Shown here: positions 4,213 through 45,807 of the stretch, piece by piece
How positions within the stretch are numbered: the stretch's first letter is position 1
Layout of the letters: the number at the start of each line of letters is the position of its first letter
From: an uncultured bacterium
Lineage (GTDB): Bacteria > Patescibacteriota > Minisyncoccia > UBA6257 > 2-01-FULL-56-20
NCBI GenBank assembly: GCA_963725235.1
Contig: CAVRXN010000002.1
Span: 186,902 to 250,901 of the forward strand
Direction: 5' to 3'
Length of the DNA: 64,000 bases
Made by a program: the position numbers and the translations under genes
Notes under the pieces: model-generated
The model's input: the letters and a program-made list of their open reading frames with translations, nothing else
Database searches by the model: none
Told to the model about the DNA's origin: nothing

Positions 4213-4241
4213 AATGACATTATAGCAAGAAATGCTATTAT

Positions 4242-5373: not shown

Positions 5374-5383
5374 CAACGACAAT

Positions 5384-23958: not shown

Positions 23959-23983
23959 CAGCTGAATTTTTCATGCTAAAAAC

Positions 23984-29049: not shown

Positions 29050-29110
29050 ATAATTTATTTTCTCTTATGATACCACAGTATACGACTTGAGCGGGGGATT
29101 TGTTGCGTTG

Positions 29111-29181
29111 TGGACCCACCGGGAATCGGACCCGGCCTTCGTCCATGCCATGGACGTGTAATACCACTTTACTATGGGCCC
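29111..29181 (-). tRNA. tRNA-Ala (anticodon GGC)
   Basis: Minus strand GGGCCCATAGTAAAGTGGTATTACACGTCCATGGCATGGACGAAGGCCGGGTCCGATTCCCGGTGGGTCCA. G3:U70 identity pair, anticodon loop ATGGCAT. The T loop TCCGATT is slightly atypical. Confidence 0.75.
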
Positions 29182-29235: not shown

Positions 29236-29310
29236 GTCCCCGTAGTTCAACGGATAGAACGGCTCACTCCTAACGAGTCGATCGAGGTTCAATTCCTCGC
29301 GGGGACACCA
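29236..29310 (+). tRNA. tRNA-Arg (anticodon CCT), CCA encoded
   Basis: Acceptor GTCCCCG/CGGGGAC, D arm GTTC-AACGGATA-GAAC, anticodon loop CTCCTAA, T arm CGAGG-TTCAATT-CCTCG, ACCA tail. The 3' half is overlapped on the opposite strand by the recombinase ORF. Confidence 0.85.
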
Positions 29311-30757
29311 CGCTTGAGTTAGTCCCCTCAGATGTCGAGATAGTGTTGAAAAGACGGCCCATCTGAGCGGTTCGAATATTTCCATTCAAAAATCCGGCCG
29401 GAAGAAGAAGACGATTGAACCGCTGGCGGAAGCTCGGTTTGAGCGACTCCCAAGTCGCGCGGAGTTTGCCCAAGGGCGCACTGATTTCGGTCAAGTGTTT
29501 GCGAGTGTGCTCGGCATTTATCACTCGGCACTTTTTCCCTTCGATAACCTCCTGTCGCTCAAGGATTGTTCTCTTCTGGCGCACGTACTCCTCGTCCGTA
29601 ATTAGACCTTTGGAACGCATACTGATCAGTTCATCCACTTCCCGATCTAGGTTGCGGGCGCGTTCTCGACTGCGCCGGAGCGACGCTCGTCCATCCGTCT
29701 CCCGATCGTGGGCTTCCGCGAGAACAGCGTCTCGGAGCTTTTGCAGCGCCTCCTGCGTTGGTGCGACCTGATCAAGAAAGGCCATGAAGTCCGCATATGG
29801 ACGGTCGATTGGAACGCTCTTGCCATATTTTGTGCACGCCTTGAACCGGCATACGTAATAAGGATAGAGACGGCTTCTGCCGCGTGAAGAACCGCCAGTC
29901 ATGTAGTGGGAACACGAATCGCATCGGATAAGGCCGCGCAGCGGAAACAAGGAATTCACTTTTTGGTGGGCTACCGAATGGTTCCGGCGAGCGATCACGC
30001 GTTGCACGCGCAGAAACTCATCCCGCGTTACCATCGGAGCTTGTTTTCCCTCGTACTCTTCACCGCTCCAAGGATCAACAAGGATTCCCACGTAGTATTT
30101 GTTCGTGAAGAGGAGTGACAGGAATTGTGGGCTGAATGCACCGTTGCCATGGGGGCTCGTAAGGCCACGCGACACCATAAGCCGACCGATTTCAGCCTGC
30201 GTGTAGGCGCCGGTCGCGAAATCTCTCCATGCCCGTTGCAGTAATCCAAAAGTCGGCTGGTCCGGCAGATCGGGAAACAGTTTCTTTTCCTTCTTCGTGA
30301 CAGAACTCTTGTACCCGAGCGGCGGCCCCCAAGGGAAGATACCCTCCTGGAGTTTTCGCCGCATTCCCTGCACCGTCCGCGCCGCACGGATGTCATTATC
30401 AAATTGCGCGAATCCGGCCAGGATCGTTTCCATCAGCTTGCCTTCCGGATTGGCATCGATTGGTTCAGTAACCGACATGATGCGCACGCCGTACTTTGCG
30501 AGCGTGGCTTTCACGCTGAAGTGATCCGCCACGTTCCGCGCGAATCGGTCAACTTTCCACACGAGAAGCGCTTGGACTGTGCCTTTGTTCTCTCGACAAA
30601 AATCGATCAGTTCGATGAGCTGCGTCCGGTCAGCGAATTTCGCGGATTCGCCTTGTTCGATAAATGCTTTCAATACGCGAATGTCCTTCGAGCGGGCATA
30701 TTCCTGGCACGCCGCCTGCTGCGATTCGAGGCTGGTGCCTTCTATTTGCTCCTTTGA
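29270..30757 (-). pseudogene. Large serine recombinase, 5'-truncated (catalytic-Ser N-terminus missing)
   Basis: Homology runs from ..SKEQIEGTSLESQQAACQEYARSKDIRVLKAFIEQGESAKF..LLVWKVDRFARN (resolvase domain) through the recombinase and zinc-ribbon domains (CDSCSHYM..YYVCR) and a coiled coil. No start codon or beta1/Ser motif exists upstream. The last 41 nt are antisense to tRNA-Arg. Confidence 0.75.
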
Positions 30758-30905
30758 TGGAGGCGGGAGTAATGCAGGAAGTACGTAAGGCCATCATGGG
30801 CCATTCAAGCGGCGAAGACGTGAACTCCATTTACACCCATGTCGAATTACCGGCGAAGCGTGCAGCGATCCGGAAGCTCGAAGCATGGGTGCGTGAACAA
30901 CAACT
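30742..30905 (+). pseudogene. Tyrosine recombinase (phage-integrase family), C-terminal fragment only
   Basis: ..LMEAGVMQEVRKAIMGHSSGEDVNSIYTHV.. is the LGH..Y(T)H C-terminal catalytic box. Nothing corresponding to the N-terminal ~250 aa is present. Confidence 0.6.
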
Positions 30906-30934
30906 ACAACTTGAGCGCGAAGGAGGCGCATCAG

Positions 30935-31150
30935 ATGACCGCACAGAAAAAGACGGAGGCGGTACCGCCGCCAGCCGAAACGGACAAAGCCGAACGGAAG
31001 CCGTGGAAGAAGAGAACCCCGGTGGAAATCGTGCTTGACCAGATCCAAAAAGTGAAGGACGACGTGGCGAAGAAGGAAGACGAACTGAAAATCGCACGAC
31101 GCCAACTCCAAAAACTCGAAGAGGCGCGAAAGCTCCTCGAAACGATCTAG
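30935..31150 (+). CDS. Small basic coiled-coil protein
   Basis: Canonical SD AGGAGG (30921-30926) 8 nt before the ATG. 71 aa with a heptad-like KVKDDVAKKEDELKIARRQLQKLEEARKLLE segment. Confidence 0.5.
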   Translation: MTAQKKTEAVPPPAETDKAERKPWKKRTPVEIVLDQIQKVKDDVAKKEDELKIARRQLQKLEEARKLLETI

Positions 31151-31225
31151 CACATTTATCTTGAGCTTGCCCATCGGGCAGGCTCTTCTTTTGGTTGACC
31201 GAGAGGAATGAACGGGAGAGTAACC

Positions 31226-31772
31226 ATGAACGACATGAATCGCGACGACGCCATCATGAACGCAGGAATCGGTTTCGGAGCCGAGGCTGTCCGCGAAGAT
31301 TTCCGAAGACCAAGGCTATTTCGGTGAACGCATTGCGGCTGCTCGGCGCGAGGTCATTCGAACGTGGCATGATCGGGCTGGGAAGCTCAAGCCCAACGCT
31401 CGCGGCACGGACATCATGGGAGCGCTACTCCTCGCCGATCAGTTGTTCAGCCGCGTTCCGGCTGGCACGAAGAAGTATCTCTACGTCTTTTCCGACATGC
31501 GCCACGTCACGCGAGGATTGAACCTTGAGCTCCCGCATATCGTTGCAGCGGATACGCTCCTCGCGACCGCAGCGCGGCGTCGCCTAATCGCGAATCTACC
31601 CGGGGTTACTGTGCATGTGTTGGGAGCCGACGCCGAGGGAATGCCCGTCGCGGCATGGGATGACCTGCGGCGGTTTTGGGGGGCCTATTTCAAGAAGGCC
31701 GGAGCGAATCTAGTCAGTTACTCATCGCTCTCCGAACCGGAGATGTTGCCGCAAGCGGCTTCCGTCCAGTGA
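31226..31772 (+). pseudogene. Degraded gene, possibly vWA-like, with a frameshift near 31260-31325
   Basis: ATG 31226 follows GGGAGAG. That frame stops at ~31325, while the other frame continues ..ARGTDIMGALLLADQLF..KKYLYVFSDMRH.. (vWA-like T-D..G and hydrophobic-S/TD strand). The family call is weak. Confidence 0.3.
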
Positions 31773-32107
31773 GACGTGTTCGCCAGCACTCATGGTGTAG
31801 ATTCGCAAATGGAACAAAGGATCAAGCTTTGACAGACGATGCTCTATATAGAGGAGCTCGAAGCTCAGCGGAGCCTTATGGTTGCCGTCGCAACCGGGGG
31901 ACCGCGAATTCAGCAAGTCAACGACGAATATTCTATCCACAGAGCTTCTTGATAACAGGGCCCGTTAGCTCTATAGTTAAGGCTAAGGCGTTGTCCCGCC
32001 TTCTTCAAACTCAACACTCCTTTCGTGCATCATTCCGACCCACTTAACCAAAGATGTGGGCCGCAACCAGAGCTTCAAGGTTCTAAGATCTCGCTTTCCA
32101 TCTGCAC

Positions 32108-33346
32108 ATGAGAAAAGGTTTTACCCTCATCGAGCTTCTGGTCGTAATCGCTATCATCGCGATACTTTCTGTCGTCGTGATCTTCGCGCTCAATCCGGTC
32201 GTACTCCTCGAGCAGGGGCGGGATTCGTCGCGTATGTCGGACATGGCGGTCCTCAACAACAACATCAATTTTGCGAGTGAGGTAGGCAGCGGAGGCGGGA
32301 TATCCCTCGGCTCGCCCGACACCGTCTATATTTCCATCCCTGATCCCGTTGCAACATCCACTGCCGGTGATCAGTGCCAGGGTCTCGGACTCGGAACGCT
32401 TCCCTCGGGCTGGGCCTATCACTGCGCCGCATCATCCACCTATCACAATGTAAATGGCACGGGCTGGGTGCCGATCAACTTCACCATCCTCCCGGGAGGT
32501 AGCCCATCGGGTGCGTTGCCCGTTGATCCCGTGAACCAAACTTCAACGTTCCTCTATTACACCTACGTCATGAATTCGAGCTACCAGTACCAGCTCTATG
32601 CCCACTTCGAGTCGCCGAGTTACCAAGCCCAGGAATCGACGGAAGGCACGCCGGGGATAGACCCCGAGACCTACAAGATAGGGACGAACGTGGATATCGC
32701 TCCCTTTGCCGGAGGGATGGCCGGCTATTGGCCATTTACGGAAGGAAATGGAGCGACAACAGGTGACCTTTCTGGATATGGAAATACGGGTACGCTAACT
32801 AATGTCTCTTGGATCACCGGAACTCATGGCGCGGCTCTCAGTTTTAATGGGAATAATAGTATCGTCACTCTCTCCAACGCCGATGTCATAGGTTCGGGGC
32901 CGTTTACTTTCATTGCATGGGTTAATGCGACGACATCACCGGATCTTGAAATTCTCTTTACGACTGGCTATACCGGTTGCACGATTGTCGCCGCCTGGGC
33001 TCCGGGAGCCAATTTTGATTGTACTAATACTAATTATGCAAATGTCGCAACTGCTGGTAGCAACGGGTCATACACATCGTATTTGGGTCACTGGACGCAA
33101 GTGGCAGCGGTCCGGAACATAAATGGGGCGTACACCCTTTATATAAATGGCAGTCAGGTAGGCTTCGCTAATCAGAATGCCGGACCTGTGACCGGTGGCG
33201 GCGGATACACCGTGATCGGATGTGGTGGGTATAGCCCTCCTTGCGCGCCCAATGGAGATTTTAGCGGGGAGATGAATGACATCTTTTTATATAGTCGTCC
33301 GCTTAGCGCAACAGAGATTGCAGCCATCTACAATGCGACACAATGA
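32108..33346 (+). CDS. Type IV pilin-like protein fused to a LamG/concanavalin-A-like lectin domain
   Basis: MRKG-FTLIELLVVIAIIAILSVVV class III signal. The C-terminal half has LamG_3-like features (GYWPFTEGNG..DLSGYGNTGTL..HGAALSFNG.., FTFIAWVN, YTLYINGSQV, FSGEMNDIFLYSRPLSATEI). Confidence 0.75.
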   Translation: MRKGFTLIELLVVIAIIAILSVVVIFALNPVVLLEQGRDSSRMSDMAVLNNNINFASEVGSGGGISLGSPDTVYISIPDPVATSTAGDQCQGLGLGTLPSGWAYHCAASSTYHNVNGTGWVPINFTILPGGSPSGALPVDPVNQTSTFLYYTYVMNSSYQYQLYAHFESPSYQAQESTEGTPGIDPETYKIGTNVDIAPFAGGMAGYWPFTEGNGATTGDLSGYGNTGTLTNVSWITGTHGAALSFNGNNSIVTLSNADVIGSGPFTFIAWVNATTSPDLEILFTTGYTGCTIVAAWAPGANFDCTNTNYANVATAGSNGSYTSYLGHWTQVAAVRNINGAYTLYINGSQVGFANQNAGPVTGGGGYTVIGCGGYSPPCAPNGDFSGEMNDIFLYSRPLSATEIAAIYNATQ

Positions 33347-33563
33347 TGAGAAATGTATGTGGCGTTTCAGGCCATATTCACTATTGTTATGTTATAATTA
33401 GGATGATATCAATGGGCAAGTTTTCATTATTATCTCGTCTTGGATGCGCCTCGGTTGCGCTCGTAGCAATGCTCATGTTTTTGGCTCTTTCTCCGAATGC
33501 GCATGCGGCGATTTCTTTTGTGAGTGCAACTAGCACACCCGTAACAGATGGCACTCTCATAAG

Positions 33564-34567
33564 CTGTGAATTACGAAATTCCCTTTTTCATATGAATACG
33601 GAGAACGCAAAGGAACCGCAGTGGTCTGCGGATTTCAAGTTTTTTGAACAGGACCCATCAAACACACAAAAGAAAGTTACTTGCTGAGCACAAAGGAACA
33701 GACAGCGTTCGCGTAGTTCGCGAGGTAGCCGTCAACGGAACGCGGCAGCGACGTCACGAGGCCGTAGAACAGTTTCATGGAGCGGAAGTCGAATTCGATC
33801 TGGAACCTCGACCGGTAGAGCTTCAACTGCCAGGGCAGGGCGAGCTTCTTCATGCTCCTGAGCGGGCGGATCATGACCCACCGCTTGCCATCGATGTTCA
33901 TATCCTTCTCCAGTTGCTTCGAGACATAGCCCGCATCGGCAACGATGACACCGTTAATATCTTTGTTCACGGAACGGAAAAGGTCGCGGTCATTCTTCGT
34001 CGCATCCGAGAACCGGATGCCGAGGATGTTTCCGTCCGCATCCCGCGTCATCGTCATTTTGAGCCCGTAATACCAGCCTTTCGAGCTCCTGCCGAGGGAT
34101 GCGAACGCTTTCATCACCCGGTGGGAATCGGCATTCTTCTTGAGGCAGACCGGAAGGTCGGTCGCATCCGTGTACTTCACGAGATGCCCATGGGCCTTTC
34201 CCCATTGCATGATGATCGCGAGGATCTTCATCGCGAAAACGCCGGCACGGTTCATGGCAACGACAAGCGTCTTGTATGAGCAGGCGAGCCCATCCTTGAA
34301 ATCCTCGTATACGGACTTCTTCGTAGCCCGTGTGCTCGCATGCTGGTAGAGGGCTAATGCCACCGCATCCAGATTTTCAATTTTCAGAGGTCGACCTTGG
34401 GGATTCTTTTTGTGTGTCAGATTGAGCTTGAATGATGTTACAATATCAGTGATCCTGTTCTTGAGATTTCTCAAGATGGGTGAATTCATTTTGTCGTGAG
34501 AGGCGCCTTCGGGCGCCTTTTGCATTATGCCGTATTCATATGAAAAAGGGAATTTCGTAATTCACAG
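33564..34567 (-). mobile_element. IS982-family insertion sequence, 1004 bp, with perfect 38-bp terminal inverted repeats and an 8-bp target-site duplication
   Basis: IR CTGTGAATTACGAAATTCCCTTTTTCATATGAATACGG at 33564-33601, with its exact reverse complement at 34530-34567. Direct repeat CTCATAAG at 33556-33563 and 34568-34575. Confidence 0.9.
33677..34525 (-). CDS. IS982-family DDE transposase
   Basis: DDE triad contexts YTDATDLPVC, VIVADAGYVS, RSRFQIEFDFRSMK. 282 aa, filling the IS. Confidence 0.8.
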   Translation of the reverse strand: MQKAPEGASHDKMNSPILRNLKNRITDIVTSFKLNLTHKKNPQGRPLKIENLDAVALALYQHASTRATKKSVYEDFKDGLACSYKTLVVAMNRAGVFAMKILAIIMQWGKAHGHLVKYTDATDLPVCLKKNADSHRVMKAFASLGRSSKGWYYGLKMTMTRDADGNILGIRFSDATKNDRDLFRSVNKDINGVIVADAGYVSKQLEKDMNIDGKRWVMIRPLRSMKKLALPWQLKLYRSRFQIEFDFRSMKLFYGLVTSLPRSVDGYLANYANAVCSFVLSK

Positions 34568-36304
34568 CTCATAAGCAGTGACACAAAACAGTTTGCGATC
34601 AACGCCACTGACCTCGTTTTGGTAACCTGTCAGTTTATTGGCGGCGGTACAGGAACTGCCGTCACTTCAACCGTAACTGACACCCTCGGCAACACCTACA
34701 CCAACTTCGGGGGAGCACAGATCAATGGGGGTGACAACTCTGAAGTTCAGATGTTCTACGCCATCAGTTCGAGCACCAATGCTTCCGACGCCATAGCATG
34801 CAACTATGCAACTAGCTCTAACTTCGCTGTGGTTGGGATAGATCAGTACGGCGGCGTTGTTCAGACAAATCCATTGGACGTCTCAAATACCACCCAATGG
34901 TTTTTCGGGACCGGCGCAACGTCAACTGCATTTACGACCACGAACGCCAACGATGTAATTGTCGCCGCCGTCGGCGATGATACTAATCAAACTCATACTG
35001 CCGGAACAAATTACACGATGCGCCTTACAGGGTCGGTTCAAAATCCTTTCGAAGATTGGATAGCCACCTCAACTCAAACGAATGCGACGGCAAACATGTC
35101 CGGACCAGGCAATACCCATGCCGTGATGGTTATAGGGGCCTTCAAAGCGGCCGACCTCACCCCTCCCTCCGTTACCATCGTCTCTCCCACCTCAGGCTCT
35201 ATAGTTTCTTCTACCATCACTCTTTCCGTTTCTTCCACTGATAATGTAGGTGTCGCAGGCGTCCAATTCCAGATAGATGGAACAAATCTCGGATCAGAGG
35301 TAACCGCCACCTCAGGCCCCACTATATATAGCACCACCTGGAACACAGCCTCTTCTACCGATAGCTCTCATACAATCTCCGCCATCGCCTATGACTCCTC
35401 GAACAACAGTTCGACCGCTACCTCCAGCGTCACCGTCCACAACGCCCTCTTGAACGTCACGACCTCCACATCCCTCAGCTTCTCTGCTACCTCAGGGGAT
35501 ACCGCAACTTCTTCCCAAGTTATCGTCATCCAAAACACCGGTACGGCATCCAGCACCCTCTCCTGGACATCCACATCCACCCAATCCTGGCTTACCCTCT
35601 CATCTACCTCAGGTTCTCTTGCGGGTAGCACCACGTCGTCTCTTCTCCTCATTGCCGATCCCTCAGGTCTCTCCGCCGCCACCTATACCGCAACGGCCAC
35701 CATCACCGATTCAAATCTCTCAAGCTCCTATCTCTCTCTTCCCATAACATTTACGATCGCCGCAAGTTCCACGCCCGCTCCAGAGACCCTCCCTGCCGTT
35801 GGCGTCGCCTCCGCTTACGGCATCCCCACCTATTGGCTGCTCCCGAGTTCCACAGACCCAACCTCAGGAGACACTGCGGCATCCTCATCGCCTGCGTCAT
35901 CTCCCACATCACTCGCTTCCCTCCAGGCCACCCTCGCATCTCTTGAAGCCAAGCTCCAATCCCTCCTTGCAGAAGCAGAAAGCCAAGGCATCACGATACC
36001 GAACCTCCCGGCCTCAGTATCTTCTCCCCAAACTCCCTTCTCCTTCACCCGAAATCTCTCCCTCTGGGACCAGGGATCTGATGTAGAAGCTCTCCAGCAA
36101 TTCCTCGTCACCCAGAACACCGGACCCCATGCACAAAAGCTCAAATCCCATGGCACAACCCAATTCTTTGGCTTCCTTACGCACAACGCCCTCAAGGAAT
36201 ACCAAGCGAGCGTGGGTCTTCCTGCCACGGGATACTTTGGGGAGATGACGAGGAACCATCTGCATTCTCAAGCAGGAAATACAAAATAATATCATGAAAT
36301 CATA

Positions 36305-39300
36305 ATGAAAAAATACATCCTCGTTCTGGTTGGTTTTTTCATCTTTCTCTCCTTCATCTCACAAACTCACGCTGCAATCTCCTTTGTAAGTGCCGCCAAC
36401 ACAGCACAAGGGAATGGCACACTGGCCACGAACTCATCCCTTACCGCCTCCGTCTCCTCAGGTAATCTCCTCGTCGTGGTTTGTGATTACTATGGCGGCG
36501 GCACGGGAGTCGCTGTCACTTCGTCCGTGACCGACACTATCGGCAATACTTTTACCAACTTTGGCGGTGGCTTGTTGAACTCCGGCGCCAATAGCGAGGA
36601 GCAGATGTTCTATTCCATCAGTTCCGGCAGTAATGCAGCCGACAATATCAGTTGTAACTACGCCACGAACTCCAATTACGCCTCTATGGCTGTTGCTCAA
36701 TACAATGGCGTTACCACGTCGAGTCCTCTTGATGCTTCGAACATAACCCAGTGGTACTTTGCTCCCAACGTCACCTCGACTCCTTTCACCACCACCCAGG
36801 CCAATGAGGTCATCGTCGCGGCTGTTGGAAGTGCCGCCGTAGGATATACGTTCATTCCCGGAACCAACTACATCCTCCGCACTACGGCAACCAACCCCGA
36901 TGCCATCGAGGATTGGATCACGGGTTCAATGCAAACCAATCAGGTTGCTGGCATGAGCGTGAGCAGCGGGGATACGAGGGGCGTGATGGTGGTAGGAACG
37001 TTCAAACTTGCCTCTGGCGGTAGTGGTTTAGCCACGTCTACCTTCACCCTCACAAATGGCGGTGGTGGGTCGGTTACCAGCAATCCTGCCGGCATCAATT
37101 GCGGCAGTATCTGTTCCATGACTGTGAATAATGGTACAAGTATCACGCTCATCGCAACACCAAACTTGGGATACACGACGAGCTGGAGTAATTGTGGCGG
37201 TACGACGAGTGGCGGCACATGCACTCTTATAGTGAACGCCGATACTACGGTCAGCGTTGTCTTCAACGCCCCCGACACCACTCCTCCTTCCATTCCGAAC
37301 AGCCTTAGCGCTAATGCCGTCTCCTCCTCGCAAATCAATCTATCTTGGACCGCGTCCACGGACAATATCAGCGTCACGGGTTATAACATCTACCGCAACG
37401 GTTCCAAAATCGGTACGACCGCAAACACTGCGTACAGCGATACTGGCTTGTCCGCCTCAACTCAATACACCTACACGATCTCCGCCTATGACGCCGCAGG
37501 CAACACTTCATCCCAGTCGACTAGTGCGAGCGCGACAACCTTGGCTAGCGAAGGCGGAAGTGGAGGCAGTCCTCTGGCCGCAGGGATTATTGACCCATCC
37601 CGTGACGTTGATTGGAGCCAAGCTGGCATCCCCGGGGGCATTCCGAATCGAACCACCCAATGCGGCGCGACTATCGCAGCGTACGGGACAAGTGCTTCTC
37701 CGGCATCTCCCGCAACCATCAACAACGCGGTTGCCAGTTGTCCAGCAGGACAATTCGTCTCACTCGGAGCGGGTACTTTCTATCTGAATGCCGGCTTATG
37801 GTTTGGCGGGAACAATAACATCACCCTCCGTGGACAAGGAGCTGATCAGACCGACCTTGTCTTTAGTGGCCATTTTGGCTGCAATGGACCTTGGGCGTCT
37901 GTATGTATGGCCGGCGGTGTCAATTCTCCTGGATACGAAGATAATGTTTGCGATTGGGCCGCCGGATACGCAAGGGGCTCTACTCAGATCACTCTTGCGA
38001 ACTGTGGAACGACGCTGCCTAATAAAGGGAGTCTATCCAATCTCAAGGTAGGCAGTATGTTGACCTTGGACCAAGTAGATGAGACAGCTGATACTGGACA
38101 CATTTGGAATTGCGCTGCAGGCACGGCATGCGACGATGGACTGCAAGGTGGGTTTGGACGAACCGATGGTCCGAGCGTCAACGGTACTAATATTCGATCC
38201 CAGCAACAAGTAGTAACTGTCACTGCTATCAACGGCAACCAGGTCACGATTTCCCCAGGTCTTTACATGTCGAATTGGAGAAGTTCGCAGGCGCCACAGG
38301 CTTGGTTTGCAAATCCAAACGGTCAAGTTCAAGGGGAAGGATTAGAAAATCTTTCCCTGAATCAAACCACCAGCAATGGCGCCGACGCCGTTGAAATTAT
38401 GAACTGTAACGGATGTTGGGTGAAGGGCATCCGTTCGATTGATCCGGCGCGGGCCCATATACAACTCTTAGTCGACACTCATTCCGTGGTCGAGGATAGT
38501 TACTTCTATCAGGGCCAATCTCATCAGGCGGTCAGTTATGCGACCGAGTTCGATACCGTAGGAGACTCTTTGTTTCAAAATAATATTTGTCAGCAAGCGA
38601 CAGATAGTTGCCCAAACAACAACGGAGGAGCTGAGGGCAATGTCTGGGCATATAACTTTGCTATTGACGACGTATTTCTTGCTAATGGATGGTTTGTGCA
38701 AAGCGCTTTCGAGCATGCCGCCGGTGGCGCTATGAATCTCTGGGAAGGGAATATAGGTCCCGGATATAGTTCGGATGATATTCATGGAACACATCATTTC
38801 GAGACCATATTCCGCAATTATTTTCCGGGAGACCAGGCGGCTGGATGCGGGAGTGCCGGTGATAATGTCTGCAATGCCCAAACGACACCAATGATTCTGG
38901 CTGCGGGCTCTCGTTATTTTAATATCATCGGGAATGTGCTCGGCGATCCAGGGTATCACGGCACGTACACCTATTCGTCTGCGTCAACAGGAGCAACGCA
39001 CGGTGGCAGTACGTATTCCATTTACACGCTTGGCTATATTGAAAATGATGGTTGGTCGACGGATTCAAATATCACTGGCTTCTGCCTTTCTCCTTCGTGC
39101 ACGACCACGGGCGATTATGATCCGCAGGTTGGAAATTATCTTTTCCGCTGGGGTAACTGGGATGTGGTGAATGATTCTACTCAGTGGAATCCGTCTGAAG
39201 TCCCCACTAATATAGGTCCCTATTCGAATCCCGTCCCTTCTGGCGAAACTCTCCCTCCTTCTCTCTATCTGACCGACAAACCTTCTTTTTGGGACAGCAT

Positions 39301-41143
39301 GCCTTGGCCTGGTATCGGTCCCGACGTCACAGGTGGTACTGTGACCGGATCGTCGCTCGGACTTGCAGCTTCAGGTCCTGCGACCAACCTCGGTGGCCAC
39401 ATCTACATGAATCCTGCCATGAATTGCTTCTTGAATACTATGGGCGGGCCCGTCGATGGCACCGGCAATGTCCTTAGTTTCAATGCTGCCACCTGTTATC
39501 CTGGTGACTATCCTTCCGGCGGCTCCAATCCTCCTCCCGACACCACCCCTCCGACCACCAGCATCACTTCTCCTACCAACAACGCCACCGCCTCCGGCAC
39601 CCTCGCCGTCACCGCCACTGCCTCAGATAATGTGGGCGTCACCTCCGTCCAGCTTTACGTGGACGGCTCTCTCGGAGGGAGGGACACCACTGCTCCCTAT
39701 ACCTTCTCCCTTGATACGACCTCTCTTTCAAATGGCATCCATACCCTCGCAACCAAGGCCTCTGACGCCCCAGGGAACATAGGAAGTTCTCCCAACATAT
39801 CTATCACCGTATCAAACACCACCTCCACCTCAACCCCCGAGACCCTCTCTGCCAATCTCTCCGCATCCTTCCTCTCGGGAACTGCCCCTCTCACCATCAA
39901 TCTTTCCGCCGCCGCCGCCGGCACCGCCCAAGGCACCATCAATTACATCTTTTACTGCAATAGGCCTGATACCGGCACCAATATCACGAGTCCTGCCGAC
40001 CTCACGATCAACGCCACGAACCAGAATCCTTACGTAGCAAGCAACCTCTGCACCTACCAATCCGCAGGCACCTACACCTCCAAGGTCATCATTGAGCAGG
40101 GAAGCGCCCCACCCGCACAGGTACAACAAACCATCACCGTCTCAGCCCCCAGTTCGGGAGGAGGGACGTCTGGTGGAGGGGGCGGCGGTTCTTCAGGGGG
40201 CGGAAGCACCGGAGGTGGCGGATCTTCCTCTGGCGGAGGTGGTGGAGGCGGATCATCTGGCGGAAGTGGAAGTACAGGTGGCGGCTCCTCTTCTGGAGGT
40301 GGCACCGGCCCCGCCTTCTCGCTCGGCATCACGGTCGCGACCTCAACCACAACCTCGGCCAAGATCACGGTAACGACGTCCGTTCCCGCACAGACCCAGC
40401 TCTTCTACGGCACCAACCCCAGCTATGGATCAACCACGCTCCTCTCCTTGCCTCTCACGACGAGCTATTTCAACCTCCCGAACCTTGTGCCGAACACTAA
40501 GTACTATCTGAAGGCCGTGTCGCTTGCGGGCGGGCAAACCGTCTCCCAAAGCATTACCTTCATTCCGGGTCAAGGCATCCCTGCGCCTGTAGCTTCATCC
40601 TCAACCGCGCCCCTCCCTCCCTTCACGAGGAACCTCACGATTGGATCGGAAGGATCAGATGTCCTTGAGCTCCAGGAGTTTCTCAACCAATGGGGCTATA
40701 CGATAGCTCCCCAAGGACCTGGTTCCAAAGGAAACGAAACAACGCATTTCGGTTCCCTTACCACGAAAGCCGTCCAAAAGTTCCAATCGGCGGAACAGAT
40801 CACTCCTGTCTCTGGCTATGTAGGACCTCTTACCCGAGCGAAGCTCAACCAATTGATCGGAGGTAGTCAAACAACGACGCCCGCCCCGACACCTTCAGCT
40901 TCAGGATCTCTTACTGAGAATCTCTCAGTAGGATCGACCGGAGCTCAAGTGATCGAGCTCCAAAACCTCCTTACCAAAGACGACGACTATGCTGGACCCG
41001 TCACCGGATACTACGGAACCCTTACCAAACAAGCCGTTCAAGCCTTCCAATCCAAGTACGGCATCATCTCTTATGGCACGCCTGACACCACAGGCTATGG
41101 TGCTGTGGGGCCGAAGACGAGAAATCAATTGGAAATGCTATAG
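36305..41143 (+). CDS. Giant (1612 aa) secreted multidomain surface protein. Domains in order: paralog-specific N-domain, FN3, right-handed beta-helix (pectate-lyase/tailspike-like) region, Ig-like, PKD-like, Gly/Ser linker, FN3-like, and two peptidoglycan-binding domains.
   Basis: Signal peptide ..ISQTHA. FN3 PDTTPPSIPNSLSANAVSSSQINLSWTAS..YNIYRNG..YTYTISAYDAAGN. Beta-helix entry motif INNAVASCPAGQFVSLGAGTFYL..ITLRGQGADQTDLVF. Ig-like TSPTNNATASGTLAVTATASDNVGVTSVQLYVDG. Two C-terminal PG_binding_1-like repeats (GSDVLELQEFLN.., GAQVIELQNLLT..). Confidence 0.8.
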   Translation: MKKYILVLVGFFIFLSFISQTHAAISFVSAANTAQGNGTLATNSSLTASVSSGNLLVVVCDYYGGGTGVAVTSSVTDTIGNTFTNFGGGLLNSGANSEEQMFYSISSGSNAADNISCNYATNSNYASMAVAQYNGVTTSSPLDASNITQWYFAPNVTSTPFTTTQANEVIVAAVGSAAVGYTFIPGTNYILRTTATNPDAIEDWITGSMQTNQVAGMSVSSGDTRGVMVVGTFKLASGGSGLATSTFTLTNGGGGSVTSNPAGINCGSICSMTVNNGTSITLIATPNLGYTTSWSNCGGTTSGGTCTLIVNADTTVSVVFNAPDTTPPSIPNSLSANAVSSSQINLSWTASTDNISVTGYNIYRNGSKIGTTANTAYSDTGLSASTQYTYTISAYDAAGNTSSQSTSASATTLASEGGSGGSPLAAGIIDPSRDVDWSQAGIPGGIPNRTTQCGATIAAYGTSASPASPATINNAVASCPAGQFVSLGAGTFYLNAGLWFGGNNNITLRGQGADQTDLVFSGHFGCNGPWASVCMAGGVNSPGYEDNVCDWAAGYARGSTQITLANCGTTLPNKGSLSNLKVGSMLTLDQVDETADTGHIWNCAAGTACDDGLQGGFGRTDGPSVNGTNIRSQQQVVTVTAINGNQVTISPGLYMSNWRSSQAPQAWFANPNGQVQGEGLENLSLNQTTSNGADAVEIMNCNGCWVKGIRSIDPARAHIQLLVDTHSVVEDSYFYQGQSHQAVSYATEFDTVGDSLFQNNICQQATDSCPNNNGGAEGNVWAYNFAIDDVFLANGWFVQSAFEHAAGGAMNLWEGNIGPGYSSDDIHGTHHFETIFRNYFPGDQAAGCGSAGDNVCNAQTTPMILAAGSRYFNIIGNVLGDPGYHGTYTYSSASTGATHGGSTYSIYTLGYIENDGWSTDSNITGFCLSPSCTTTGDYDPQVGNYLFRWGNWDVVNDSTQWNPSEVPTNIGPYSNPVPSGETLPPSLYLTDKPSFWDSMPWPGIGPDVTGGTVTGSSLGLAASGPATNLGGHIYMNPAMNCFLNTMGGPVDGTGNVLSFNAATCYPGDYPSGGSNPPPDTTPPTTSITSPTNNATASGTLAVTATASDNVGVTSVQLYVDGSLGGRDTTAPYTFSLDTTSLSNGIHTLATKASDAPGNIGSSPNISITVSNTTSTSTPETLSANLSASFLSGTAPLTINLSAAAAGTAQGTINYIFYCNRPDTGTNITSPADLTINATNQNPYVASNLCTYQSAGTYTSKVIIEQGSAPPAQVQQTITVSAPSSGGGTSGGGGGGSSGGGSTGGGGSSSGGGGGGGSSGGSGSTGGGSSSGGGTGPAFSLGITVATSTTTSAKITVTTSVPAQTQLFYGTNPSYGSTTLLSLPLTTSYFNLPNLVPNTKYYLKAVSLAGGQTVSQSITFIPGQGIPAPVASSSTAPLPPFTRNLTIGSEGSDVLELQEFLNQWGYTIAPQGPGSKGNETTHFGSLTTKAVQKFQSAEQITPVSGYVGPLTRAKLNQLIGGSQTTTPAPTPSASGSLTENLSVGSTGAQVIELQNLLTKDDDYAGPVTGYYGTLTKQAVQAFQSKYGIISYGTPDTTGYGAVGPKTRNQLEML
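40151..40309 (+). repeat. Low-complexity GGN/AGY tract encoding a ~53-aa Gly/Ser linker
   Basis: Encodes SSGGGTSGGGGGGSSGGGSTGGGGSSSGGGGGGGSSGGSGSTGGGSSSGGGTG inside the giant protein. Confidence 0.8.
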
Positions 41144-41179
41144 GGTTTGGGGCCCAGGAAACTTGCTACTATCGGCTAG

Positions 41180-41431
41180 ATGCCGACAGAACATATCCTT
41201 GCGCTTTTGATCCAGGAACGAGACAAGCTCAATCGAGCCATTGCTGCGCTCCAAGAAGGCGTGAAACGCAGGGGCAGGCCTCCTAAAAATCCTCTGCTTG
41301 GTGGATCGCCGGCCTCGACCACGGTTCTTAAAACTGGGGTGCGGAAAAAACGGAATTGGAGCGCCTCCCGAAAACGAGAGCAGGCAAAGCGGATGAAAGA
41401 ATATTGGGCGAAGAAGCGAAAGCAGAAGTGA
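41180..41431 (+). CDS. Small basic protein with AT-hook-like motif (candidate DNA-binding protein)
   Basis: 83 aa. KRRGRPPKNP contains the GRP AT-hook core. Lys/Arg-rich C-terminus. Confidence 0.5.
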   Translation: MPTEHILALLIQERDKLNRAIAALQEGVKRRGRPPKNPLLGGSPASTTVLKTGVRKKRNWSASRKREQAKRMKEYWAKKRKQK

Positions 41432-41463
41432 TTGTTTCTGACGAGCTCTGAAATCTTCCGCCT

Positions 41464-41987
41464 TCACCCTCTCATTGCGCGGGCCGAATTCTGGGTGGTG
41501 TGCAGCGTCGTCCTCGGCATTGTATCAATGGCGATAGCTGGCGTTTCGAGACCAAGCCGAAACTCCTCATTGAATCGCTCCGTCCAGTCGTGGAGCGCTT
41601 GAGCAGCCTCGCGGTAAGGCCAGTCACTAGCTGAGAGAACGTGCTCTTTCAATTCGTCATTGATCGGCTCGCCTGCAGGGCATATTCCAGACGCGGGCTG
41701 CTTAGACCCGTTCGGCACATTTGAAGTCGCTGCTTGAGGTTTAAACCACACGGCCTTCACCATGTCAGCCACCACCTTCCGAGTCGCTCGCCGAATGCCA
41801 GCAAGTTGCCATGCAGGCGATTCATCACTGACCGATAACATTGAAAACACAATTCATGATCTCGGTCGAAACGAACTCGGCCGCCATATTTATACAGGGC
41901 TTTACGCACGCGGCAGCAAACGCAGAGTTTCCGTTCGGCTTTGTGGTTGCGGCGAGCAGGGCTGGTCGTGGCCCGTGGCAAGTCCAC
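41464..41987 (-). CDS. Hypothetical zinc-ribbon protein, either frameshifted or two overlapping ORFs
   Basis: ORF 41757..41987 carries CVCC..(27 aa)..CFQC. ORF 41464..41850 overlaps it by 94 nt in another frame. The start lies 15 bp from the IS481-like element. Confidence 0.35.
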
Positions 41988-42001
41988 TGCGGAAGATGAG
42001 A

Positions 42002-43088
42002 TACATCGGTGACACTCTGGTGTTGCCCGATGACCTACAAACTACGGATCAAAAATAGCGGCAAAACGAGGTATGCTGGGCACAACATGCCTACCTCCCA
42101 TATCCTGCCGGGGGCGATGGAACTCGCCCGCATTCCAACCCTCAGCCGCGAAGCCAAGAAGCGTCTGGACTGGTTTGATTTCTACCGGGCAAACAAAGAG
42201 AATGCGGCGTTGACCTGCCGCCACTTCGGCATCAGCCGGGAATGTTTTTACGAATGGAAGCGGAGATATGATCCATTCAACCTCTCATCACTCGAGGAGA
42301 AAAGCCGTGCGCCCAAGAAGACGCGAACGTGGGAAGTGTCACGAATTGAAGAGTTCCGCATCCTGCGTCTGCGTCGCGCCCACATCCGCTGGGGCAAGAT
42401 GAAGCTCAGGATTCTGTACGGGCAGGAATATGGCACGCCCATCTCGTCGTGGAAAATCCAGCGAGTGATCGAAAAGCATCAGCTGTATTTCCATCCGGCG
42501 AAGAACGAGAAGCTTGCCAAGAAACGTAAGCAGAACCAGCCCAAAAAACGCATCACGGAGCTCAAGAAGGAGCAACGTGCGGGATTTCTCGTGGCACTCG
42601 ACACCGTCGTGCGGCATACGGCCGGACTCAAGCGATATATCCTCACGGGGATCGACGTCCACTCGAAAATCGCCTTTGCGCGGATGTATCCGGGGCACGG
42701 GTCGAACCATGCGGCTGATTTCCTGAAGCGGATCAATTACCTGTTTGATGCGAAGATCGAGAATCTCCAGACGGACAATGGCAGCGAGTTTGCAAAATAT
42801 TTCCGGGAGGCAGCTGCAGAACTTTCGTTGCCGCATTACCATTCGCGTCCGAGAACGCCCAAAGACAATCCCGTGGACGAACGGTTCAATGGCACCATCG
42901 AGCGGGAATTTCTCCAGCTGGGCAACATGAGTACCGACTGCGATGCCTTCAATCGAAAGATGACCGAGTGGCTGATCGAATACAATTTCAAGCGTCCCCA
43001 TCAGACCCTTGGCTACGAGGTACCGGTCGAGTACCATTACAAGAACCAGAAAGTGTCACCGATGTACCCGTCCAGCACATCCACTTGA
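42002..43088 (+). mobile_element. IS481-family-like insertion sequence (boundaries approximate)
   Basis: Single rve-type transposase ORF. Imperfect inverted repeats TACATCGGTGACACTCTGGT (42002-42021) and ACCAGAAAGTGTCACCGATGTA (43045-43066). No clear target duplication was seen, and the ORF stop lies 22 nt beyond the right repeat. Confidence 0.55.
42009..43088 (+). CDS. IS481-family DDE transposase/integrase (HTH + rve core); probable start at 42087
   Basis: HTH region CRHFGISRECFYEWKRRY. DDE contexts LVALDTVV, LQTDNGSEF, PKDNPVDERFNGTIEREF. C-terminal YNFKRPHQTLGY. Confidence 0.8.
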   Translation: MTLWCCPMTYKLRIKNSGKTRYAGHNMPTSHILPGAMELARIPTLSREAKKRLDWFDFYRANKENAALTCRHFGISRECFYEWKRRYDPFNLSSLEEKSRAPKKTRTWEVSRIEEFRILRLRRAHIRWGKMKLRILYGQEYGTPISSWKIQRVIEKHQLYFHPAKNEKLAKKRKQNQPKKRITELKKEQRAGFLVALDTVVRHTAGLKRYILTGIDVHSKIAFARMYPGHGSNHAADFLKRINYLFDAKIENLQTDNGSEFAKYFREAAAELSLPHYHSRPRTPKDNPVDERFNGTIEREFLQLGNMSTDCDAFNRKMTEWLIEYNFKRPHQTLGYEVPVEYHYKNQKVSPMYPSSTST

Positions 43089-43363
43089 CTTTCTAGGTGG
43101 ACGGGAGTATTGGTTAGATTGTAAATATCTGAATCTAATATGTTTACTTGGGTTGTAAGACGTGATCTGTTCGGCATCGTACGTTCTTTCCGATGTTGAA
43201 CAGGTGCCCGTCTCACAACGGGCGGCCCCATTTGGATGGTGGAACATCCGGTGGGGCTTACTTTTAGTTAAGGCCACTGTCCAACACCTACGCTAGTTCC
43301 AGTGTTGGCACTAAGGTATTGAAAGTACAGTAGTTCGTGGCAGTTCTATGTAGCTACGCCCAG

Positions 43364-44167
43364 CTACGCAAGAGGTGACAGGCCAGCGTTCCTGAGGCAT
43401 TCGAGCCGCTTGCTACGCCACCGGGGGTGAACGTCTTCGGGAAGTGCATCTCGCATGGCAGCGAGCCAAAGATCTTCGAATGCATTCTTGAAAAATCGAT
43501 AACCAGCCCCGTTATCCTCCACGCCCATGATAAGCGCCGGGCGGTGGTCGGTCGATCCACACTCGTGAAAGCATGCCCCGGTTCGGTTGAAGGGGAGCAA
43601 CTCTACTTTTAAATATCGGTCGTTGCAGATTGCTTGCATTGTCGGAACCGAGGTGTAGCGGTACACCTCAACGTAATCCTTTGCGTCCTGGACCTCCCTC
43701 CACCCCGACCAGGCGCTCTCTACGTTCGCTCGCACGCGTGCAGGTTTCTCGGCCGCGTTATCCGCCCAATTTGCCAGAGCCTCTTCCGAGGGCGGCCACC
43801 AGGTCAACACGCGAAAGTGTTTCGTCTGGACTACACCTTCATCGAACCACGATCTGATACGGTCGAGAGTATGGCATGAGCTTATGCTTGCGAAGAGGAC
43901 ACTGCTTGATTCTTCCTGCAAAATGGTTTCAAGCCAATCGCCTTTGCGATTCGCAAGGCTGAGCTGCACCTGGACGTTTTCTTCCGTCGGTCGGTTGAGC
44001 ACGATTAAGCGGTAGCCATCCTCCTCGGTGACAATTTCGAAGGTGACCCCCTCACCGGGATAATAGTTGTGGTAGGAAGGAATCTTCAATCGAATATCCT
44101 GAATTACACTGCGGACATTATTCTTACTCTTCTCGCCGTAGTTATCTCCCATTGGCAGTTCAAGCAT
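43364..44167 (-). CDS. Hypothetical protein with an OmpR/PhoB-type winged-helix-like N-terminal segment and an uncharacterised C-terminal domain
   Basis: NNVRSVIQDIRLKI...FEIVTEEDGYRLIV resembles the Trans_reg_C pattern (..I..LR.KI....I.TVRG.GY.L). The remaining ~190 aa are unassigned. Confidence 0.45.
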   Translation of the reverse strand: MLELPMGDNYGEKSKNNVRSVIQDIRLKIPSYHNYYPGEGVTFEIVTEEDGYRLIVLNRPTEENVQVQLSLANRKGDWLETILQEESSSVLFASISSCHTLDRIRSWFDEGVVQTKHFRVLTWWPPSEEALANWADNAAEKPARVRANVESAWSGWREVQDAKDYVEVYRYTSVPTMQAICNDRYLKVELLPFNRTGACFHECGSTDHRPALIMGVEDNGAGYRFFKNAFEDLWLAAMRDALPEDVHPRWRSKRLECLRNAGLSPLA

Positions 44168-44169
44168 TT

Positions 44170-44852
44170 TTGCTAGGTCGGACGACGACGGGTATTACGC
44201 TGAGGAGATCAACCAATTAAAGGAGCGATACGGTAGCCTCCGGAACATTTTGGCCCAAGCTCGTCCTGAGGATTTCCCAGCGAGATCAAGACGGCGCAGA
44301 GTCTGCGAGCGCATTGAGGAACTGCGAGGGTTTTTGGCGGTGCGTGCTCAGAATCCTGATCCCGCTACCTTGCTCGACGAATTGTTTCCACGCGAGAACG
44401 AAGGCACTAGGGCGATGCGGCTGATTTTTGACGGATTGTTCGAAGACGACGATACCCCAGCGTCGTTGTACGGCAAATATATCGATTATGCGAGATCTGT
44501 GCCGCAAGCCGCGAATACGGTAAGGATCATGAGCCTCATGGCATCCAAAGGTCTCCAAGCCGAGCACGTGTATATCATGGGATGCAATAGTGGCAATATC
44601 CCCGGCGCGAATAGATCGGTTCACTTAACGGATGCCGAGCATCGGCAAGAACAGCTTCGTTTTCTGTATGTTGGCTTCACGCGTGCGACGCGGTCCCTTA
44701 CGGTCAGTTGGGCACGAGAAATCCCCTTCAGCCAAGCGATGGGCCAACACACTCCCGGTGTGCGAACCCTTCGAAGGCGCGGTCAGCAACCAACGTCCGA
44801 GGTTGGAATATCCGAGCTTCTCCAGGCTCTCAACGTCGATTGGGAGACATAA
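44170..44852 (+). pseudogene. UvrD/Rep/PcrA-type superfamily-1 helicase, C-terminal fragment only
   Basis: VRIMSLMASKGLQAEHVYIMG (motif V/VI region, compare TiH.sKGLEf..V) and EQLRFLYVGFTRATRSLTVSW (RLlYVa.TRA motif). The N-terminal ATPase motifs are absent. Confidence 0.65.
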
Positions 44853-44988
44853 TTATAAGATCACTCCTGGTTCAACTTTCGCCAGCGGAGTCTATTTCGA
44901 TGACTATTATCGAACCGGCTTTCTCGGGGTCGCTCCGGCTCATCATCGCCGTTCATGATCTCCCAGAATGCTTGTATTTCAAGGATGG

Positions 44989-45020
44989 CGCGGTTCAACT
45001 CTTCGCTAGCGAGGGACACA
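44989..45020 (+). repeat. Candidate degenerate copy of the tRNA-Arg(CCT) 3' end (possible right-hand att remnant of the island)
   Basis: CGCGGTTCAACTCTTCGCTAGCGAGGGACACA versus tRNA CGAGGTTCAATTCCTCGC-GGGGACACCA. That is 14/17 matches, a ~5-nt insertion, then 8/10 matches. Could be chance. Confidence 0.3.
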
Positions 45021-45063: not shown

Positions 45064-45807
45064 ATGGTCGAGTTTTCCCATTTAACGAAGCTCTATAAAA
45101 AACGCAAGGCGGCGGTGGATGATTTTTCGTTGACGGTTGGTGTGCCGATTTTTGGTTTTCTCGGACAGAACGGTGCGGGAAAAACGACGATAATGAAAAT
45201 GATTGTCGGTCTACTCGAACCAACAGAGGGGACGATTATGATCGACGGTGTGCCATCGACGGCGCTCGCTGCAAAAAAGAAAATGGGCTATATGCCTGAG
45301 ACACCATATTTTTACGAACGTATGAAGGGGATTGAGTTTCTAAAATTCTGCGATGAACTTGACGGGCGAGCAGCGGCCGGCGGCCATGGCACTGCGCACC
45401 GCACGGCGCATTATGAAAAACTCCTTAAACGCGTCGGCATTTTCGATGCACGCAATTTTGAGATCCGGACATATTCGAAGGGCATGCGCCAGCGGCTCGG
45501 CTTCGCGCAGGCGCTCGTAAACGACCCTGAATATTTATTTCTCGACGAACCGCTCGACGGACTCGATCCGATTGGCCGGCGCGAGATGAAAGAGGTGATG
45601 CTCGGGTTACGCGCAGAAAACCGGCGCATTTTTCTCAACACACACATCCTCGCCGACGTCGAAGAAATTTGCGATGAGGTCGGCATCATCCATGCCGGAA
45701 AATTGCTCTATGCCGGCAGCGTGCAAAAGTTCTGCAATGGCAAACCGCTCGAGGAGCGTTTTATGGAAACCGTCGGGCAACATGAAAAAAACATTAAACT
45801 TTCATGA
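45064..45807 (+). CDS. ABC transporter ATP-binding protein (ABC-2 subfamily style)
   Basis: Walker A GQNGAGKTT, signature YSKGMRQR, Walker B LFLDEPLDGLD, H-loop NTHIL. Confidence 0.9.
   Translation: MVEFSHLTKLYKKRKAAVDDFSLTVGVPIFGFLGQNGAGKTTIMKMIVGLLEPTEGTIMIDGVPSTALAAKKKMGYMPETPYFYERMKGIEFLKFCDELDGRAAAGGHGTAHRTAHYEKLLKRVGIFDARNFEIRTYSKGMRQRLGFAQALVNDPEYLFLDEPLDGLDPIGRREMKEVMLGLRAENRRIFLNTHILADVEEICDEVGIIHAGKLLYAGSVQKFCNGKPLEERFMETVGQHEKNIKLS

Follow-up and report, generated by a model that had tools for sequence, protein, structure and literature searches.

We analysed a 64,000-nucleotide stretch (the window, in whose coordinates all positions are given) of a 511-kb contig from an uncultured bacterium of the Patescibacteriota (GenBank assembly GCA_963725235.1, contig CAVRXN010000002.1), in which a foreign island of 15,711 bp, positions 29309-45019, abuts the gene for tRNA-Arg(CCT) (29236-29310, + strand; ARAGORN). 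The gene of a large serine recombinase (LSR) lies in this island in two pieces, one at either end, and we consider it very probable (about 0.85) that the element integrated at the 3' terminus of the tRNA gene through an attachment site (attP) inside its own LSR open reading frame (ORF), splitting the gene as it did so. Taken alone, the island is an ordinary decayed tRNA-associated island; its interest lies in the mode of integration, which recurs widely in bacteria of the candidate phyla radiation (CPR).

Empty sites in two relatives, which we refer to by locus number, confirm that 29309-45019 is an insertion, a real and now decayed foreign island. In L004, whose marker protein is 73% identical to that of the window, FMN_bind, tRNA-Ala, tRNA-Arg(CCT) and an ATP-binding cassette (ABC) transporter follow one another in this order, and the same order is found in L176 (marker protein 62% identical), where the transporter ATG stands 38 nt past the tRNA; in both relatives the transporter lies 40-60 nt downstream of tRNA-Arg(CCT), and the island gene order is absent from the interval. 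The tRNA-Arg gene is identical over 73 nt in the window, L004 and L176, up to ...GGGGACAC at position 29308, directly past which the unedited window departs from the relatives' sequence. With 29309-45019 removed, the window aligns to L004 at 88% identity (250/284), and in this empty-site alignment 44989-45019 occupies the exact place of the tRNA 3' end. Host sequence resumes at 45020: the segment 45020-45807 (+), which holds the B' arm of the bacterial attachment site (attB), the promoter TGGTATAAT and the ABC-transporter ATPase gene (45064-45807), is collinear with the sequence directly downstream of tRNA-Arg in L004 and L176. Both junctions are spanned by separately assembled Logan contigs of the same sample, which link host genes to island genes across the junction. 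The Logan contigs break at both insertion sequence (IS) elements of the island, at 33591 on the side of an IS982-family element and with a start at ~43050 on the side of an IS481-like element, which suggests that these elements are repeated in the genome.

The island also differs from its surroundings in composition. The observed/expected CpG ratio is 1.57 ± 0.17 in 47 host windows of 1 kb versus 1.09 ± 0.15 in 15 island windows (Mann-Whitney p = 2e-8), a blind two-breakpoint segmentation places the CpG-poor block at 31.8-44.3 kb, and the NCG share of NCN codons is 0.51 in host genes and 0.25 in island genes, lowest in the genes of two surface proteins; G+C content itself is unchanged between host and island. 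A preliminary description of this DNA, made from the sequence by eye, had proposed a mosaic island of ~15.7 kb at tRNA-Arg(CCT), poorer in CpG and in NCG codons, and had suggested sliding composition plots and a synteny comparison as checks; the boundaries that it gave are essentially right, the compositional discontinuity is strong, and the counts and empty sites given above agree with it. The Shine-Dalgarno sites that it had noted at island genes are likewise present as quoted, with AAGGAGG 7 nt ahead of the ATG at 30935 and GGGAGAG ahead of the ATG at 31225; many host genes carry TATAAT-like boxes immediately upstream of the ATG.

The left end of the island holds the body of the LSR gene (29270-30700, - strand; ORF 29270-30673). 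Full-length relatives measure 525-550 aa, and the best of them, the 548-aa protein P0122, is 69% identical to the window LSR, with homology from about residue 12 to the junction at ..NSSVV. This end of homology coincides with the tRNA terminus, and the last 11 codons (SPRGIEPRSTR) and the stop are antisense tRNA. At the right end, positions 44861-45019 (- strand) hold the detached 3' end of the same gene, 52 codons (VSLASEELNRAILEIQAFWEIMNGDDEPERPRESRFDNSHRNRLRWRKLNQE) and a stop, as judged from the in-frame join, the alignment with full-length LSRs and a 26-residue hidden Markov model (HMM) of the tail, which matches with E 1.3e-8. The detached tail, whose C terminus is ..KLNQE, is 50-65% identical to the tails of relatives well past its tRNA-like part, and joining 29309 to 45019 restores an in-frame protein of 528 aa that aligns with the 525-550-aa relatives through the stop codon.

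On the coding strand, the N-terminal part of the LSR lies downstream of the C-terminal part; the gene is circularly permuted. Because of this order, simple insertion of foreign DNA into a resident gene is excluded, and the permutation is explained only if a circular element was opened within the gene. The preliminary description had observed correctly that the last 41 nt of the recombinase ORF are antisense to the tRNA; this is the direct consequence of the gene having been split by integration and not a coincidental extension of the ORF. It had also read 44989-45020 as a degenerate copy of the tRNA 3' end and a possible remnant of the right attachment site, of which the second part stands; the sequence is not a decayed tRNA copy, being the island's own attP arm, which encodes the LSR C terminus. 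The recombinase ORF end and the right-end sequence are therefore two halves of one gene. An alignment of the tRNA 3' half with the right end, which the preliminary description had proposed, gives 44989-45020 a Smith-Waterman score of 23, reached by 11 of 2000 local shuffles and equalled or beaten at several places elsewhere in the window; the score alone is at window-wide chance level, and the similarity owes its significance only to its exact place in the empty-site alignment and to what the sequence encodes.

The two junctions share a 7-nt core, GGGACAC (29302-29308 and 45013-45019), within which the crossover lies. The left junction, attL, reads GCGGGGACAC/CACGCTTGAG (CACGC.. after the junction, which the slash marks) and is formed by the tRNA-Arg gene, host-derived up to 29308, as the B arm of attB; the right junction, attR, reads GCGAGGGACAC/ATGCCAGGC (ATGCC.. 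after the junction), and the first ~28 nt of the detached tail (44992-45019) form the P arm of attP. From these we predict an attP junction of ...GCTAGCGAGGGACAC/CACGCTTGAGTTAG... and an empty attB of ...CCTCGCGGGGACAC/ATGCCAGGCACC.... As a separate observation, integration created an encoded CCA end on the tRNA-Arg gene (29306-29310), the window reading ..GGGGACACCA and both L004 and L176 ..GGGGACACAA.

In the AlphaFold model of P0122 (predicted local distance difference test score 80.8), which shows beta-hairpins at residues 296-325 and long helices at 344-415, the junction falls in a low-confidence linker (residues 485-500), with a helix at 502-514 after it. Because the junction maps to this linker, the attachment site is, on the model, written into a tolerant segment of the LSR.

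The window LSR itself is a disabled member of its family. Its 5' end lacks the first ~11 residues, including the catalytic Ser (relatives begin MNGVIYCRVSSKEQ, whereas the window copy lacks MNGVIYCRVS and reads ..ALLPPPSKEQ), the break at ~30700 adjoins a fragment of a tyrosine integrase, and the Pfam Resolvase match (E 9e-23) begins at profile position 37 of 145. The domains expected of an LSR are otherwise found, with Recombinase at E 1e-3 and Zn_ribbon_recom at E 8e-5, both below the curated cut-offs. The catalytic deletion, together with both IS insertions and the various gene fragments, shows that the island has become immobile and fixed.

The split gene is not peculiar to the window. The counts of loci that follow rest on the best 80 GTDB species-representative loci from a scan with the LSR alignment. 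Of the 80, 33 have the LSR stop codon within a tRNA gene of the opposite strand (Met 18, Glu 8, Ala 6, Tyr 1), into which the ORF extends by 33-74 nt, most often by 40-43 nt (41 in the window), and in eight further loci the LSR ends in an antisense-tRNA tail of the type G(I/F)EP; LSR ORFs ending in an antisense tRNA (Met, Glu, Ala, Leu or Tyr) are thus found in at least 41 of 80 loci, mostly from CPR bacteria. Metagenome contigs display the same pattern and add tRNA-Val and tRNA-Ile. Among the CPR hosts are Saccharibacteria, Paceibacterota and Yanofsky-, Doudna- and Taylorbacteria; the others are Bdellovibrionales, Multivoradales, Thermoanaerobaculia, Limnocylindria and one gammaproteobacterial bin. 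The junction occupies the same alignment position, directly after S.xV, in all tRNA-fused loci. Of 36 such loci, 34 match the catalytic motif Y.RVS(S/T)..Q and the remaining two have RVSD, and the ORF of the other integrated copies is uninterrupted to the junction, so that the window copy is unusually decayed.

The missing C termini can be found as well. On the LSR strand, the far island end carries a detached tail in L077 (~9.9 kb from the tRNA), L044 (9.1 kb), L046 (9.2 kb) and L065 (4.1 kb), with weaker matches in five further loci; minus-strand control matches of the tail HMM reach only E > 0.6. Each detached tail shares its opening 4-7 nt with the target tRNA's antisense end, for example V-A (GTTGC..) with tRNA-Met and V-D (GTGGAC) with tRNA-Ala. 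In the elements of L077 and L044, Pfam found no tyrosine integrase and no genes for phage structure or conjugation; every domain that it did find there is of unknown or general function. The LSR is the sole recombinase found in these two elements and so the sole candidate catalyst there. Side by side with these single tails, two Acidobacteriota loci, L024 (12737, 14208) and L029 (12783), carry a full-length LSR with one or two extra detached tails downstream, each beginning exactly at the junction codon and those of L024 being near-identical copies, and in L072 (16262) a detached tail lies ~2 kb ahead of a second tRNA-Met; these extra tails may be tandem, nested or repeated integrations. L005, the contig of P0122, has a full-length LSR 5.6 kb from tRNA-Pro(TGG), with a tyrosine integrase beside that tRNA and a PemK toxin, a small resolvase and a second integrase fragment nearby; tRNA-Pro(TGG) is also found 6-9 kb from the LSR in L012 and L029.

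The attachment sites carry a further signature, one known from serine integrases. In every one of the nine loci with both arms known, the heptamer T[CGT]G[AC]A[CT][CT] starts at nt 22 of the attP arm, counted from the junction, and at nt 17 of the tRNA arm; in the window, the attP arm has TTGAACC at nt 22, against nt 17 for the motif of the tRNA arm. Of 24 full-length genes, 20 have the heptamer at nt 22, as does L005. The heptamer was used in place of a looser motif, GAAYC, of which the antisense T-loop holds two overlapping matches that gave inconsistent offsets. For the Listeria LI integrase, the zinc-ribbon-domain motif of attB is shifted inward by 5 bp relative to that of attP (PMC3783163), and the shift seen here, assessed on one arm per site, has the same size and direction. 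The residue before an invariant Asn varies between Ser, Trp and Leu (TCG, TGG, TTG) as the heptamer is kept, which argues for constraint at the DNA level; this points to a conserved DNA word rather than a conserved amino acid, apparently mimicking the antisense T-loop TCGAACC. The identical core measures 4-7 nt across loci.

These data show the insertion and its boundaries, the permuted gene, its recurrence in the family, the motif offset and the decay; from them we infer the following course of events, with the LSR as the probable catalyst. A circular element inserted at the 3' terminus of tRNA-Arg(CCT), its own LSR probably catalysing the reaction through an attP inside the LSR reading frame, in the flexible linker ~50 codons ahead of the stop. 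Recombination at the core GGGACAC kept the tRNA intact and partitioned the LSR gene, leaving ~1.4 kb of it at the left end, reading into the antisense tRNA and stopping there, and stranding its last 52 codons 15.7 kb away, just upstream of the host ABC-transporter promoter. Recognition, probably in the same manner throughout the family, would rest on the first two tail codons, which would mirror the last nucleotides of the target tRNA, and on the conserved (S/W/L)-N codons, which would spell TNGAACC, a mimic of the antisense T-loop; lying 5 bp more distal than its counterpart in the tRNA, it would be placed where an LSR attP is expected to have its zinc-ribbon-domain motif, compared with attB. 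Afterwards a deletion took away the LSR start with the catalytic Ser and most of the neighbouring tyrosine integrase, an IS982-family element entered one surface-protein gene and an IS481-like element inserted; vWA-like (von Willebrand factor A) and helicase fragments remain.

Several observations weigh against integration by the LSR through an intragenic site, or limit how far it extends. The window LSR is catalytically dead and no test is possible on this copy. The nine loci with the motif offset are not independent, as the tRNA geometry and the tail motif are each conserved, and they count as one family-level feature; no convincing dyad-symmetric second half-site motif was seen by eye in attP or attB. 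None of the complete contigs checked for circular forms has terminal repeats, and no excised circle or sign of mobility at the level of reads was found. Among named LSR relatives the closest, from Acidobacteriota (50-60% identity), mostly carry the gene at full length on large chromosomal contigs without a tRNA beside it, so that a full-length gene is no proof of an episomal state, and the intragenic site may not be used by every family member. Finally, the island contains a tyrosine-integrase fragment, and the 7-nt core would also suit a tyrosine recombinase.

This last point bears on the rival explanation that survives best, although we regard it as improbable: a classical tRNA island inserted by a tyrosine integrase, with the right end a decayed displaced tRNA 3' part and the LSR a passenger truncated by chance. 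Tyrosine integrases typically target tRNA 3' ends (Islander paper), a remnant of one is at hand, and the identical core would fit the overlap region of such an enzyme. Decay of a tRNA copy would not, however, yield an open in-frame continuation of the LSR with 50-65% identity beyond the tRNA-like part, and the same junction codon is used in dozens of LSR loci with different tRNAs; L077 and L044 have no tyrosine integrase by Pfam, and the 5-nt motif offset is a property of LSRs. With Islander-type tRNA islands the likeness is in the intact abutted tRNA, the recombinase genes, the IS elements and a cargo of atypical composition, but those islands are the work of tyrosine integrases, and here a serine integrase is concerned; of a tyrosine integrase, the island holds a C-terminal fragment of ~95 aa. 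Their signature, a displaced tRNA-gene fragment at the far end, is replaced by the 7-nt identical core and the offset T-loop-like motif; as the crossover falls right at the tRNA terminus, no segment of the tRNA is regenerated or displaced, and the apparent fragment is the attP mimic with its 5-nt spacing shift.

Still less probable is an ancestral region that the relatives have lost by deletion, or a contig that is a chimeric assembly of CPR and foreign DNA. Such a reading gains from the small number of empty-site relatives examined, two, a third (L174) having a different neighbourhood, and from the fact that the closest named LSR relatives belong to another phylum. It would have to account for the same precise empty site at the tRNA end in two relatives at different distances, for the difference in composition, for the separate Logan contigs that cover both junctions with host and island genes and for cargo proteins that are CPR-like; the circularly permuted LSR gene, moreover, demands an integration event. 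Mere coincidence, an LSR ORF running to the first stop in the tRNA and a chance similarity at 44989-45019, could appeal to the equal or better Smith-Waterman scores elsewhere in the window, and is effectively refuted by the tail HMM match, the in-frame reconstitution, the exact position in the empty-site alignment and the recurrence of the pattern in at least 41 of 80 loci.

Integration by the LSR through its own coding sequence finds its closest analogue in the archaeal SSV-type 'suicidal' tyrosine integrases (SSV1, pTN3, pT26-2). In both, attP lies within the integrase ORF, tRNAs are the targets, and the N- and C-terminal parts come to lie at opposite ends of the island; the SSV-type att-encoded peptide is likewise tolerant, with target switching through that segment (PMC7253208). 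Those enzymes are tyrosine recombinases of archaea, described in that 2020 paper as 'so far restricted to archaea', whereas the enzyme here is a serine recombinase of bacteria, mainly CPR and Acidobacteriota. The SSV-type split, furthermore, gives two inactive stumps, whereas here integration removes only the last ~25-55 residues, the catalytic motif being kept in 34 of the 36 copies.

With the phiC31, Bxb1 and Listeria A118/LI integrases, the family shares the resolvase-type catalytic domain, the recombinase domain, the zinc ribbon with a long coiled coil, the short att arms and the motif 5 bp nearer the centre in attB than in attP (PMC3783163), and differs in its target, the tRNA 3' terminus, in the position of attP inside the integrase ORF and in the splitting of the gene. 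It has no close relative in the phage and plasmid collections, where no match exceeded 32% identity and coverage was partial; IMG/VR gave one match of 30%. The small serine recombinase of phiRSM is also of the serine family and uses part of a tRNA gene (tRNA-Ser) as attB, but it is of the resolvase/invertase type, its attP is intergenic between orf14 and orf15, and no gene is partitioned (PMC4471427); it is the known exception that we could document to the assumption that serine integrases do not target tRNA genes. In the large survey of LSRs by Durrant et al., tRNA is nowhere named in the main text. We found no prior description of bacterial serine integrases with an intragenic attP or a self-split gene in the open-access literature; one may exist elsewhere.

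A further parallel is the integration-dependent immunity of the mycobacteriophages BPs and Brujita, where attP also lies in the 3' part of a coding sequence and the C terminus differs between the episomal and the integrated state; there the split gene is that of the repressor and the enzyme a tyrosine integrase, whereas here the serine integrase itself is split. In that system the episomal repressor carries an ssrA-like degradation tag that is lost on integration (PMC8092301). Among 111 full-length LSRs (alignment A3), 27 end in -AA and 8 in -AV (e.g. L104, L106, L113, L125), their tails being very different in length and sequence. By analogy, these ends, which look like ssrA-type degrons, may be lost on integration; the window tail is without -AA. 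The split could in this way serve as a switch, in which the episomal form would carry the C-terminal helix and often a degron-like -AA end, and integration would exchange these for a short tRNA-encoded tail, which, if the analogy holds, would alter the stability or directionality of the enzyme without a separate directionality factor.

The remaining content of the island bears the marks of decay. Behind the LSR lies the C-terminal fragment of the tyrosine integrase (..MGHSSGEDVNSIYTHV..; 30745-31038, +), which matches phrog_1 (E 7.9e-8, positions 406-476 of 611) and, marginally, positions 140-168 of 172 of Pfam Phage_integrase (E 0.23). It is followed by a small coiled-coil ORF with AAGGAGG upstream (30935-31150, +; no family match in Pfam or PHROGs), a weak vWA-like gene fragment (31195-31772, +; VWA_2 positions 67-106 of 107, E 0.23) and a 412-aa fusion of a type IV pilin-like N_methyl segment (E 1.6e-7) with a LamG/ConA-like domain (Laminin_G_3, E 3.8e-17; 32108-33346, +). 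The smaller of two surface paralogs is cut by the IS982-family element into a 5' piece with the signal peptide region (33343-33563, +; 46% identical to residues 6-42 of the 1612-aa protein) and a 3' piece (34576-36289, +) with Big_7, BACON-like and PG_binding_1 domains. The element between them (33564-34567, -; transposase 33677-34525) has the features of its family, a DDE_Tnp_1_3 domain (E 1.7e-23), terminal inverted repeats, here of 46 nt, and a short target duplication, the 8-bp CTCATAAG at 33556-33563 and 34568-34575. The larger paralog is a secreted surface protein of 1612 aa (36305-41143, +) in which Pfam finds fn3, Big_7 and two PG_binding_1 domains, and the two are 47% identical over 248 aa.

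Downstream follow a small basic ORF with an AT-hook-like RGRPPK motif (41180-41431, +; AT_hook E 0.032), a possible, weakly matched rve-type transposase fragment (41464-41850, -; rve_3 E 0.11) and the IS481-like element (42002-43066, +; transposase ORF 42009-43088), with rve, rve_3 and HTH_28 matches and perfect 15-nt inverted repeats, at whose flanks no target duplication was seen. A 267-aa protein (43364-44167, -) has no match in Pfam, PHROGs or PADLOC. Last comes the C-terminal fragment of a UvrD-like helicase (44250-44852, +; UvrD_C positions 284-349 of 350), of the GajB-like kind (E 5e-10); its best matches are the C termini of Gabija GajB, and it may be the remnant of a defence gene. No GajA-like partner was found, and a reading of the region as a defence island is not supported, PADLOC having given this fragment only. 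Nearly all of the gene content listed in the preliminary description (two truncated recombinases, the two IS elements, several fragments and the pilin-LamG fusion) was recovered by Pfam, PHROGs and PADLOC; of its two giant paralogous surface proteins, the paralogy is real and only one is giant, the other measuring ~640 aa and being split by the IS982-family element.

The surviving cargo consists of CPR-type cell-surface proteins and the pilin-LamG fusion. CPR genomes hold the best long-coverage relatives of the 1612-aa protein, at 33-44% identity over 46-78% of the query, and proteins of the pilin-LamG and PG_binding_1 kinds occur commonly in the CPR loci examined. On the searches of phage, plasmid and IMG/VR sequences, the element is callable neither as a phage nor as a plasmid.

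The flanking genes place the host. Named homologues of a neighbouring 520-aa Rnf/NAD-binding protein are from Paceibacterota or Minisyncoccia, and with the flanking gene set, which includes LigA, PilB, MurA, AspRS and YchF, they mark the host as a CPR bacterium that appears Paceibacterota-like; exact-protein look-ups with the flanking host proteins returned the same organism only. The tRNA-Arg(CCT) gene is neighboured by tRNA-Ala(GGC) (29110-29181, -; ARAGORN), and the spacer between the two measures 54 nt in the window and ~140 nt in L176; in L004 it holds two small ORFs of 60 and 97 aa (6980-7452 of that locus). Elsewhere in the window, an ORF with a weak Pfam flag for LAGLIDADG_3 (23221-23898, +) ends at or inside tRNA-Asp (23884-23959), in a stretch of low G+C content (0.41-0.43) at 23-25 kb just past LigA, and an ORF resembling it is present in L004 and not in L003. 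A second stretch of low G+C (0.42-0.47) and lower CpG content, positions 3000-5000, with ORFs at 3646-4212 (-) and 4242-4871 (+), just precedes tRNA-Arg(GCG) (5302-5374) and may be another small foreign segment. The aspartyl-tRNA synthetase (57682-59112) is just 476 aa long; its match to the bacterial model comes in two stretches, and the usual insertion domain appears to be missing.

As to what these findings mean for the family, we raise as a tentative suggestion, which we hold at somewhat less than even odds, that they represent an undescribed and widespread class of bacterial serine integrases that reach tRNA 3' ends via an attP in their own coding sequence, with the split of the gene as a built-in switch and a target that could be reprogrammed by two or three linker codons. 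If true, the partitioning of integrase genes extends to serine recombinases and to bacteria, and the finding contradicts the working assumption that serine integrases avoid tRNA genes. Such islands lack the direct repeat sought by island finders and their integrase ORFs are annotated as ordinary proteins of 490-500 aa running into tRNAs, so that a common class of mobile elements of CPR bacteria (Saccharibacteria, Paceibacterota and others) has probably been missed or mis-bounded. Short, tRNA-directed and apparently codon-programmable att sites would be attractive for genetic tools in CPR bacteria and possibly for integrase engineering. For the organism itself, ~3% of the source contig is a fixed foreign island that supplies surface proteins and a pilin, the kinds of gene that are expected to matter for an epibiotic lifestyle.

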